NCBI GenBank assembly: GCA_964016885.1
Contig: OZ024741.1
Span: forward strand, 97,278,001-97,342,000
DNA length: 64,000 nucleotides
Origin: Eledone cirrhosa
Lineage: Eukaryota
Direction of reading: 5' to 3'
Each line of letters begins with the position of its first letter. Position 1 is the stretch's first letter. Position numbers and translations under genes: made by a program. Positions 11,275-59,065 of this stretch are shown here, piece by piece. The notes beneath the pieces are model-generated. The model did no database searches, was not told where the DNA came from, and saw nothing but the letters and a program-made list of their open reading frames with translations.

Positions 11275-11459
11275 ACGAAGGAAATGTGGTAAGGAACCAG
11301 ATGGACCATAACGCACAAAAGTACTCAATGTTTAGGGTAGTAGAGTGGGTAATAGGAACAAGTATGACCCCGACGGCAGAGCTCAAGCCGTTTCGACGGC
11401 TAATTCTGCACTAAAAAAATAGTCTTGAGCTCTGCCGTCAGGGTCATACTTGTTCCTAT
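11275..11459 (-). mobile_element. Mini fold-back element in (TA)n (family also at 47187-47348)
   Basis: ATAGGAACAAGTATGACCCCGACGGCAGAGCTCAAG is inverted at 11424-11459; the left tail carries GTACTCAA; TA tracts flank both sides. Confidence 0.75.
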
Positions 11460-12689
11460 ATATATATATATATATAGAGAGAGAGAGAGAGAGATAGAAG
11501 TGGTTACACAACAGTTACTTCAACATACCGAGAACAATTGTTTCACATTAGCGGATCCTCAGCTCAGAATGGGAATGGTTATAGGAACAAGAAGGACAAC
11601 CGTAAAAAACGCGCATGCGCAGAAACCTGGTCACTTCACAAGGCAATACTAGAATGCGTTCCCGAGGTGTAAGGGAGATAACTGCGGAAGTCCGAAAAGT
11701 CTTTAGTTAAAAAATAAAATTACAAAGAATCAGTCCGGAGTCTTGTAGTTATGCAATAGGCGTTTGGCGACGTGTGGACAACGTGTGTAAAATTCATTCT
11801 CGTGTTTAGGCAATCACTATTGCGTAATCTCTTTAGAATAGTTATTCATTCGTCAATGCATACGCCACCCGTCGGATTCCCCCTTGCGTATGGATTGGAC
11901 TTAGTGATGGCTTTCCATTGAATGGGGTAGTCTATACTTGAGTCCTTAAGGAGCCATACGTGGCTCGCGAGTTTCGTGGATGTACGTCTGTTCGGGTACC
12001 TGAAGGTAGACTGGTGGTTCAGGAAAACGTTCCTTAAATCAACCCTCCATCATGCCCACATAGGATTTGACCTTCTGTGGTAGGTTTGGTCGGTTGAAGG
12101 GGGCAAGCTTCAAGCTTACGGCAAGAGAACCCTGGTGGGATGTTGCTCTTAGGGCTGCTGCTGATGTGGGCCTTCATGTTCTTAGCGCAGGAGTATCCTA
12201 GTTTAGCTTTATGTCGGTTAAAGTGGAGCGGCATTTATCACCTATGGGAAAGTGTCTATCTAAGAAGGCTAGAAATGTTTTTCCTACATTAGTTTTAACG
12301 TTGAGTGAGGAGGGAGGAGAGAACCAGATAGTTTGTCTATTGTTGCGCTTACTTTTCTTAATGGTGTTGTTGCTAGTGGGGGAGTAAGTGATAGATTATA
12401 AGAAGCCGCTGTTAGCCAACGCCATGTTATAGTAGGGTGCCGCCCTGTCAAAGATAGCCTTATTAGAGGAGAGGTTTGAAATTCTAGTACTGATATTCTT
12501 AACGATGTTTCTAAAAACAGAGGGAGGGTGGCATGAGTCATGTAATTTAGTTTCTCGTTTAGCTTATGGAAGGGTCTGTGGGTGTGTGTGCGAAGGTCTC
12601 AATTAATGTCTTAGAAATCTACGCTAGAGAGGTTAGTGGCTATTGTTATCCTAAGTCCTAACTCATTGAAGGTAGAAGCTAAGTCTTTT

Positions 12690-13493
12690 TTAAAACCGGT
12701 CGAGGTCTTGACCACTTTTATGGCTCGATAAAGTTAGTCCAAGGTCGCGGTATATTCCCGTGTGGAAGTCCGGGAATCTAACACGTAATATGTCTAAGAT
12801 GAATAGGCCAACCAAGTCACATACGTCAGCACTGTCAAACGATCCCACGGAGACGTCGAATAGGTCTGAAGTTGTAGACGTCTTTGCCCAGGCTACTCCG
12901 TCGTTGAAGAGGAGGGTTTTCCGGCAGTGAGCAATAATTTCACTGTCTAAACCATCGACGGTGGTATAAGTGGTAGCGAAGTCCAACAGGGTCTCTGAGA
13001 TCGACGGGTAAAAATCGACAATGTCAAACTGTGTGAACTTCGCTTTTTGGGATTTTAAGGAGTTAAACCACTTAATTACGGAGTCGCTGTTCTCCCACTG
13101 GGGAAGGTTGGACTTGGTCCTAATGGTCTTAACTATGTTTCTAAGTATGGCCTTACTGACTAGTCCCATATCTGTGCGTGCCGGGTTTATTAGTCTACAT
13201 GTGGGGTTAGAAGTAAAGTCTACCTTGTGATCTTTCAGGGTGAGGAACGCCTCCCGCTTAGCTAGAGATTGTAGTTTCTTATCTACCTTAAGGTCGTCAG
13301 CAAGTTCCTTGGCTGCTGTATTAATGTCGTGGTAGGCCATAGGGTTAGCTTTCTTATATTTAGAAGTAATAGCGTTATGGGCCAGGTGGCGGAAAGTGGT
13401 GTTGTCGACTTCGTAAATATTATTTGTTTTGTCGGAAAGAACGTTAGTGTGTTTGCGAAAGGAAATGTTAGCGACTAAGTAAACAAGGTCCAT
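12690..13493 (-). pseudogene. PLE reverse transcriptase, disrupted
   Basis: LKDHK, CRLINP, QFDIVDFYPSI, GSFDSADVCDLVG and YRDLGL (catalytic DD degraded). An N-terminal piece continues in ORF 13518..13700. Confidence 0.9.
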
Positions 13494-57917: not shown

Positions 57918-58799
57918 TATATATATATATATATATATATATATATATATATATATATATATATATATATATATATATATATATATATATATATATATAT
58001 ATACATACACAAATAGATGGAAAGAAGGAGGTATACGTGTTTCTCGATTTTTTTTTAAACAATATATATATATATATATATATATATATATATATATATA
58101 TATATATATATATATATATATATATATATACATGTGTGTGTGTGTAGGTATTTATGTATCTAACTATGTATGCATTTATATGTGTAATCCTGTATTTCGT
58201 ATTTTGACGCATAGCACGCTGAGCTATGATATATTTGCCTTAAAGTCTTTTACCCTTACCAAATCTGGTTTACTAAAAGTTAATAGAATTTTTTGCTTCT
58301 TTTTTTAATGTCCCGGCCCTCTGGCGTTTTATCATTTCATAACACGCTTTATAATTTTCTACTACCCATTACATTTTACTATCAGCTAAATGTGATTTTT
58401 ACACGCTATCATCCCTTAGATTTAACCAAGCTACTAAATGGAAATACCAAATTCCTTTCAATCTGCCTCCCTACTTACCTATGTAAATAACCTACGCGTG
58501 CACTCACACCCACCCACCGCATGTGTATAAATATGCCTGTATATATATATATATATATGTATATATATGTATATATATATATATATATATATATATGCTT
58601 TCTCAAGCCAACAAATTATAAATCCAGAGACGTCTTCCTCTATAATCCTAATTGTAGTATCCCAGATTTTAAAAACTCTATAACTTACATTAAAGCAATG
58701 TTTTATTTATTCACACCTTCTCTATTGATGCTATTACGTTTTCCCATGTTCTCATTATTAGGGTATAAATGTTGAGTTTTCTCATACGTTAATCACTAC

Positions 58800-59065
58800 C
58801 TTGATTAAATCTTAACCATCTAACATCTCAGGGTATGTCATGTATCATTTTATTTTATCTGATGAGGACGTACTGTTGAACGTGATTCACGTACCTCTGA
58901 AATATGTATAATAACATTTAATTGATCACAAGAACATCTATTTTATTAGTATTTGAATTTAATATTATATTAATAACTCTGGAAAATATTTCTACCGTAG
59001 AGTGCTTCCAATCTACTGTAAAACTCATTCTTTCATGTACTCACTGAATCTTGTTTAACTCTTTA
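58800..59065 (+). mobile_element. Solo pLTR-like unit with hammerhead (family of 17.1-17.5 kb)
   Basis: TATTTTATCTGATGAGGACGTACT...TGAAATATGTATAATAA and GAGTGCTTCCAATCTA match 17321-17520. Confidence 0.82.

Follow-up and report, generated by a model that had tools for sequence, protein, structure and literature searches.

The window analysed here is a stretch of 64,000 nucleotides (nt) from Eledone cirrhosa (assembly GCA_964016885.1, contig OZ024741.1, positions 97,278,001 to 97,342,000), an animal whose genome measures 3.0 Gb and is rich in (TA)n. The stretch carries Penelope-like elements (PLEs), which across the loci studied are nested in one another's (TA)n flanks. According to the original prediction, otherwise unrelated families share a word, TGAGTRC or TTAGTAC, at 25–60 nt from the insertion end, and this word is a conserved cis RNA signal for the start of reverse transcription. 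We find that TGAGTRC is one arm of a bulged hairpin occurring twice in Hydra-clade PLEs, and that insertions end about 6 nt 5' of one or the other copy. The main features, with position in the window and strand, are the following, stem 1 being the first of the two hairpin copies.

11495..14456: family A insertion, a Hydra-clade PLE, with arms 11495-12163 and 13677-14393 and a one-sided tail to 14456 (self-BLAST)
12693-13517, minus: family A reverse transcriptase (RT) with DKT
13651-14166, plus: family A endonuclease with CxCX5C linker and CxxC
14327..14355, plus: family A hammerhead-like core, about 70 nt 5' of stem 1 (pattern and eye)
14398..14420, plus: family A stem 1 (14412 site), with a 1-nt bulge; outer pair probabilities 0.89-0.95
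53048..53070, plus: stem 1 of the second family A copy (53062 site)
11320..11346, minus: family B stem 1 (11321 site), inner stem decayed; failed the strict descriptor
47235..47263, minus: family B stem 1 (47236 site); pair probabilities 0.68-0.73
17329..17377, plus: family C hammerhead-like core (pattern match)
17442..17470, plus: family C stem 1 (17462 site); the minimum free energy (MFE) fold of the tail favours another pairing
58976..59006, plus: stem 1 of a family C variant (58999 site); the MFE fold of the tail favours another pairing
32946..32968, minus: family D stem 1 (32947 site); pair probabilities 0.64-0.85
28670..28705, plus: family E true stem 1, G-C form; pair probabilities 0.99-1.0, short ends 4-7 nt before it
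28726..28740, plus: family E 6-bp triloop hairpin holding TTAGTAC, not the homologous site
37466..37499, plus: family F true stem 1, GTTC/GAAC form; pair probabilities 0.99-1.0, short ends 4-8 nt before it
37531..37545, plus: family F 6-bp triloop hairpin holding TTAGTAC
11087..11135, minus: stem 1 of Hydra family J, with a long inner loop; outside the list of the original prediction
33804..33815, minus: stem 1 of Hydra family I, 3' arm; a truncated copy, the full inner loop being about 70 nt (locus L286)
54841..54852, plus: family I-like stem 1, degenerate 3' arm

All nine quoted word sites are present as positioned and point to (TA)n, at distances of 37, 39, 58, 60, 55, 25, 52, 48 and 43 nt. 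The families that carry them are closer to one another than had been supposed. Hydra-clade PLEs are marked by a C-terminal GIY-YIG endonuclease with a CxCX5C linker and by RW[KR] and DKT motifs (PMC8557442). In family A (11.5-14.5 kb), the encoded RT has DKT, and the endonuclease at the C-terminus shows the CxCX5C linker and CxxC. Families B (11.3 and 47.2 kb), C (17.5 and 59 kb), D (32.9 kb) and E (28.7 kb) were linked to Hydra-type open reading frames (ORFs) through searches with their tails in the same genome, upstream walks and read-through copies. The C-terminal GIY-YIG domain with CxCX5C linker, CxxC and CxH, and with no CCHH, is thus seen directly in A and via related loci in B to E: in family E it lies upstream in seven loci having the same 3' untranslated region, in C and D it is contiguous with the tail family (L440/L446/L443 and L452/L453, respectively), and in B it lies 905 nt upstream in locus L171. 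The RT, with an RWK-type motif and DKT, is represented by DKT in A, by RWR and DKT in the ORF that follows stem 2 of B, and by RWR and DKT in family I; for C, D and E it is linked through tblastn matches to family I only. The insertions lie in (TA)n, as inverted or tandem pseudo-long terminal repeats (pLTRs) with a one-sided tail. The hammerhead in the pLTR was recognised by pattern and eye in A, C and F, and is found also in E and in 45 outside clusters; in short copies of family B its core is split by inversion, and no hammerhead appears among the 150 Rfam matches listed for the window. By motifs and tblastn, five of the six families are Hydra-clade PLEs, so that the description "otherwise unrelated" falls away.

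The sixth, family F (37.5 kb), consists of tandem units of 488 bp that carry a long-stem-II hammerhead and both stems (window 36951-37568; L238, L242, L245, L254). No RT-endonuclease ORF was found in its 25 loci, and it works like a retrozyme-like non-autonomous partner of Hydra elements. Two further observations concern the state of the families. Family I is very young: all 150 of 150 scored endonuclease matches are 100% identical, and its ORFs are intact in 6.7-kb tandem units (L286-L288, G000:C1). Family B persists in the window as palindromic remnants of about 200 bp only, and its full-length tandem units of about 3.54 kb stand at L499-L502 (G000:C1:91.47-91.49 Mb).

At each TGAGTRC the same order is found: an upstream ACTC, an inner stem-loop, and a bulge of 2 nt (1 nt in family A). 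The word is therefore the 3' arm of a hairpin of the form N-CTC-[stem-loop]-2-nt bulge-GAG-N'-RCT, which as RNA reads 5'-N-CTC-Y..R-bulge UH-GAG-N'-RCT-3' and measures about 25–35 nt. Its leading T is a bulge base and is variable (T, C or A), and the outer arms occur as GCTC/GAGC, ACTC/GAGT, TCTC/GAGA, GCAC/GTGC and GTTC/GAAC. GCTC...GAGC-ACT is the ancestral form; in E. cirrhosa, stem 1 usually takes the A-U form. The inner loop ranges from a few nt to about 130 nt, a wide variation of the sort expected for an RNA fold; in family I the inner loops are about 70 and about 130 nt, and TCT replaces RCT. The MFE fold holds the stem in five of the eight window tails that were folded, with outer pair probabilities of 0.64-1.0. 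The Rfam matches listed are due to microsatellites and fall far short of the gathering scores, and none represents a curated model for the stem.

TTAGTAC (28.7 and 37.5 kb), the other half of the predicted motif, is not homologous to this arm. In families E and F it is the loop of a separate 6-bp hairpin, the true stem lying 34-58 nt upstream, and it has no strand bias. The two triloop hairpins lie between the two stems and have an identical 11-nt core with different paired flanks; among the loci scanned, this 11-mer occurs only in E, F and an F relative (L049). What stood of the shared motif is thus TGAGTRC, with its boundaries wrongly drawn. Other readings of the word were set aside as well. 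A Leu-Ser-Ala/Thr coding motif is excluded by in-frame stops and by a tail that precedes the ATG in families A, B, C, D, I and J. The common GAGC-AC form is unable to self-pair as a kissing loop, a selenocysteine/SECIS (selenocysteine insertion sequence) element does not fit, and a branch point or splice site finds a pyrimidine run with CAG 31 nt on in family A and none in the tails of B, C and F.

Taken as bare words, the motif is weak evidence. T[GT]AGT[AG]C matches the window 26 times in total, the majority outside tails; in the 113 non-simple (TA)n flanks of the window it reads toward the run eight times and in the opposite orientation four times. An independent sample of the same genome (60 arbitrary 10-kb stretches, 600 kb, 740 (TA)n flanks) holds TGAGTRC at 20-69 nt from the run 20 times reading toward it versus four times away (p 0.0015; 3.3 expected), 14 of the 20 falling in a single 10-nt bin in which one family predominates, and TTAGTAC four times toward versus six away. 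When the flanks are clustered into 467 groups, neither word is significant (TGAGTRC 7 vs 3, p 0.34; TTAGTAC 2 vs 3). The enrichment over background that was predicted near (TA)n is thus found per copy, for TGAGTRC only, and not per family. The structure behaves otherwise. In the same random sample, the hairpin stands at 32 of 77 GAGYRC sites located 15-80 nt before (TA)n versus nine of 368 elsewhere (Fisher p 9e-20), copies being non-independent and belonging to some 8-10 families by eye; overall, 41 hairpins were observed versus 8-15 in shuffles.

The stem is present twice per family, between the hammerhead and the start codon. Read-through copies of A, B, C, D, E, F, I and J have the second stem just past the long end, ahead of the ATG; except in B, stem 2 was read by eye. 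For family B it was set as a prediction: a pattern made of the long end plus CTC matched 388 places (control 0), and in the loci fetched the GAGC-ACT arm, which was absent from the search pattern, followed, and then a Hydra ORF; the outer pair was G-C in 21 of 21.

Insertions end about 6 nt before stem 1 (the short end) or stem 2 (the long end). Each end was scored as an interval, with an ambiguity of 1-6 nt because the adjoining RNA resembles (TA)n. Of 18 anchors tried, 16 were scored (K1 had no anchor, and C2 matched no terminated copies), and the modal interval includes 6 nt in 14 of them; of the two misses, E2 is an artefact of an AT-rich anchor, the real class being 5-7 (22 copies). In loci outside this genome, 12 of 17 stems allow 6 nt by eye, offsets of 11-13 being dropped as mis-anchored. 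It follows that the one-sided tail equals the distance from stem to stem, and tails in these families are indeed about 55-125 nt, equal to the stem spacing. The 25–60 nt spacing to the downstream (TA)n was correctly measured in the original prediction, and is a by-product of where the long end is set: it is what separates the 3' arm of stem 1 from the position, about 6 nt short of stem 2, where the copy terminates. The real register is that from a stem to its upstream end. Stem 2 itself is left out of the insertion at the long end.

The hairpin is also conserved well beyond this genome. A 40-protein alignment of relatives yielded 78 metagenome and 21 genome-bin loci, forming 79 clusters at 80% DNA identity; among viral contigs no relatives were found. 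A strict descriptor of the stem matched 28 of the 44 clusters with a 5' leader, none on the opposite strand and 0.25 on average in shuffles; by region, it matched 49 times in 16.5 kb of leader versus twice in 159 kb of ORF bodies. Many of the 16 negative clusters have a shorter inner stem or a truncated leader. With the arm letters set free, and 45 clusters with a hammerhead plus 120 nt, the stem was found in 39 clusters and its twin in 22, versus 5 on the opposite strand and 4.7 in shuffles (maximum 9). This relaxed set comprises 61 stems, one of which (cluster 75) is probably spurious, with the consensus GCTC-Y..R-T[TCA]-GAGC-ACT. The hammerhead core and stem 1 are 72-107 nt apart, and stem 2 follows after another 55-72 nt in 20 of 22 clusters; TATA or ATAT stands at -10..-3 in 34 of the 61 stems versus 10% of background windows.

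Covariation was counted on sites anchored on the 3' words and an upstream CTC, without demanding the flanking pairs, which avoids circularity; anchoring was used since a MAFFT alignment of 58 stems put the inner 5' strand wrongly. Of 63 anchored sites, 61 have a partner and 44 a single candidate partner. Among these 44, inner pair 1 is paired in 43 (30 C-G, 13 T-A) versus 34.1 expected on permutation, and inner pairs 2 and 3 in 30 each versus 17.9 and 17.0, while a control pair outside the helix is paired in 13 versus 13.5, the permutation ignoring relatedness. Structural covariation, which the original prediction had proposed as a check, is therefore found in Hydra-clade elements from many other sources. 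The published consensi (File S7, PMC8557442), in the portions seen and by eye, show the stem in three of six (in Hydra-1_Ajap two copies precede the ATG, and Hydra-2_Ajap and Hydra-2_Amil each have one near the end) and with one mismatch in a fourth, Hydra-1_Crog; it is unclear in Hydra-1_Amil and in the visible portions of Hydra-1_Obim. As a side observation, 21 loci from GTDB prokaryote bins (L414-L434) code for PLE proteins of the Hydra type; several of these loci also have a hammerhead, stems and (TA)n flanks, and they are very likely animal host DNA within bacterial bins.

The presence of a compensatory hairpin, together with ends about 6 nt 5' of it, links a conserved RNA signal to the start of reverse transcription. 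This part of the original prediction is upheld, the unit being a structure and not a 7-mer. We consider it rather probable, judging from sequence, that each hairpin in the sense RNA serves as a binding site and ruler for an internal start. The RT-endonuclease protein would bind the bulge and the unpaired RCT of the stem; the nicked (TA)n 3' end would be placed on the UA-rich stretch just 5' of it, with 0-4 possible base pairs; and cDNA synthesis would begin about 6 nt 5' of the stem and proceed away from it. A start at stem 1 would give the short end, and a start at stem 2 would copy through stem 1 and give the long end, so that the TGAGTRC seen in a tail would be the 3' arm of stem 1 enclosed by long-end copying. 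A precedent exists in vitro in a PLE of the Poseidon clade, where two internal start sites on the RNA bound the tail, the RNA 3' sequence is needed and homology is not (PMC11167929).

Several observations weigh against this proposal. That precedent comes from a different clade (PMC11167929). Other registers fit too, 5 nt in 13 and 7 nt in 10 of the 16 anchors; the commonest interval of J1 is 7-10 (10 copies), with 2-6 in seven copies, and 5 of the 17 outside stems miss 6 nt. The MFE fold favours other pairings in three of the eight window tails (both C copies and the 11.3-kb B copy), and stem 2 of family A has an outer-pair mismatch and an interior of about 90 nt by eye. The outer four pairs are near-invariant (GCTC/GAGC in 54 of 61), so that little covariation comes from them, and at inner pair 2 the counts of G-U and A-C are 3 vs 3, which does not distinguish RNA from single-stranded DNA. 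Finally, the families at 20.4/49.9 kb and 33/50 kb have two ends and a tail without the stem, which means that the stem is not a general PLE mechanism.

An unlikely alternative is that the hairpin acts as DNA, in single-stranded cDNA or extruded at the pLTR-ORF junction, and guides a GIY-YIG cut about 6 nt away during resolution. The pair types are compatible with the complementary strand, Craig et al. attribute the tail to endonuclease resolution (PMC8557442), and Frangieh et al. cite the D. virilis tail as required for endonuclease recognition of plasmids (PMC11167929). However, the end-adjacent stem is missing from the inserted copy, which is simpler for an anchor on the template side; extrusion from duplex DNA is unlikely for inner loops of 70-130 nt, as in family I; and in vitro, internal RT starts suffice for a tail (PMC11167929).

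The same register and both ends would also be accounted for if the stem marked a cut in the RNA about 6 nt 5' of it, made by an element protein or a host nuclease, with ordinary target-primed reverse transcription from the new 3' end. Hammerhead cleavage is indeed protein-assisted in the Poseidon assay; but the dominant Poseidon product came from unprocessed RNA, with 3' sequence past the start required (PMC11167929), and the stem has no evident catalytic consensus, so we regard such a cut as improbable. We hold it very improbable that the stems serve the 5' leader as promoter elements or as signals for splicing or translation, with an incidental register to the ends. In outside leaders stem 2 lies mostly 7-39 nt ahead of an ATG, and PLE leaders have internal promoters and introns (PMC8557442), but this leaves unexplained the constant distance from end to stem across families of differing spacing and the retention of both stems in family F, for which no ORF was found; the word, moreover, is non-coding, with in-frame stops, in a tail 5' of the ATG. 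That the stem is shared through descent or chance and has no function, as the related families and the non-significance of bare 7-mers per family might suggest, is scarcely credible and is largely refuted by the outside descriptor counts and covariation, since the fold and its compensatory changes are kept among Hydra elements with proteins only about 30-50% identical and leaders that cannot be aligned.

Returning to the proposed ruler, a bolder form of it, tentative and rather doubtful at present, is that a dimer of the Hydra RT-endonuclease sits on both stems of one RNA, each subunit priming on the opposite (TA)n strand 6 nt 5' of its stem. If so, one event would yield two inverted copies placed head to head, one arm short and the other long, the inverted repeats and one-sided tail of PLEs would be explained jointly, and a portable RNA tag of about 30 nt could set the start of a telomerase-related RT on any RNA. 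Against the dimer, one family A insertion (L012/L025, G000:C7:14.336 Mb) has a long tail on both inverted arms, so that one RNA per insertion is not obligatory.

The elements at 20.4/49.9 kb and 33/50 kb have CX4CxxC linkers and lack the word, as had been noted. A Pfam GIY-YIG search returned CX4CxxC-linker families only, with the word at the first (TA)n end in 0 of 30. Tails of these (Nematis/Neptune-type) families start with the same 5' arm and a GTGT-type inner stem, with no GAGY partner; judged by eye, the spacing to the short end again allows 6 nt. This half-hairpin, found at the window positions listed below and at L289, L292 and L091/L094/L102/L110, is possibly a homologous signal in a second clade, and hints at a wider one.

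33159..33182, minus: half-match in the 33/50-kb family, a CX4CxxC-linker PLE; failed the descriptor
50131-50154, minus: second copy of this half-match
17608-20485 and 48183-49991: Neptune-like PLE (RT and GIY-YIG), inserted in (TA)n directly after the family C tail
43788-44414 and 56019-57679: fragments of AP-endonuclease LINEs (long interspersed nuclear elements; Exo_endo_phos, RVT_1), unrelated to the stems

PLEs are the sister group of telomerase RTs; as to their choice of an internal start and the origin of the one-sided tail, the single in-vitro study mapped two starts and no signal. A covarying RNA element of about 25-35 nt, at a fixed distance from both ends throughout a clade, leads to clear mutational predictions. 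The stem also offers a simple means of locating where Hydra elements really end, their leaders and their non-autonomous partners, and may be of use as a tag directing RNA into (TA)n sites.

Among known systems, the epsilon element of hepadnaviruses is a bulged stem-loop to which the RT binds and which determines where synthesis, protein-primed and templated in the bulge, begins. For the Hydra stem, the primer would be nicked target DNA and the start would lie outside the stem. The 3' stem-loop of the eel LINE UnaL2 and its short interspersed nuclear element (PMC1636434) is likewise a short, conserved hairpin in the RNA close to where reverse transcription begins; mobility depends on it, and non-autonomous partners carry it too, as family F does the Hydra stem. 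There is only one such hairpin, however, situated 5' of the start and copied into every insertion, whereas the Hydra stem occurs twice, lies 3' of the start and is uncopied at that end. Template boundaries in telomerase RNA and DRT10 (PMC12632851) belong to a related RT lineage, use a stem to fix the template position and possibly share UA-rich primer alignment. Those stems are located on the 5' side of the template and halt synthesis, whereas the Hydra stem is 3' and would set the start, with no repeat addition, so that the likeness is one of analogy only.

The closest experimental parallel is Anolis Poseidon (PMC11167929), in which, as in the present proposal, two internal starts bound the tail, 3' RNA is required, the target is AT-rich, priming is homology-free and a dimer is predicted; its target is cut on both strands, and its starts lie in an AC-rich stem-loop. 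It differs in belonging to another clade and in having its starts inside the ORF, and the available parts of that paper define no conserved or twin RNA element. With the Hydra clade as described (PMC8557442), our families share the CxCX5C GIY-YIG domain, RW[KR], DKT, the hammerhead, the (TA)n target and the pLTR arrangement with a one-sided tail. The tail given there is 30-40 bp and is ascribed to endonuclease resolution; here it is about 55-125 nt and matches the stem spacing, and the accessible parts of that description mention neither stem nor register. A published description of the twin stem and its register was not found in full-text searches, or in the portions available of PMC8557442, PMC11167929, PMC4209133, PMC3846280, PMC12632851 and a 2026 retrozyme preprint; the searches did not reach most of the subscription literature, among it the first study of the D. 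virilis endonuclease. The elements belong to a known clade, and RNA hairpins that bind RTs are of a known kind, such as the LINE 3' stem-loops and epsilon; what is new is that the hairpin comes in two, each lying 3' of its start and being omitted from the inserted copy.

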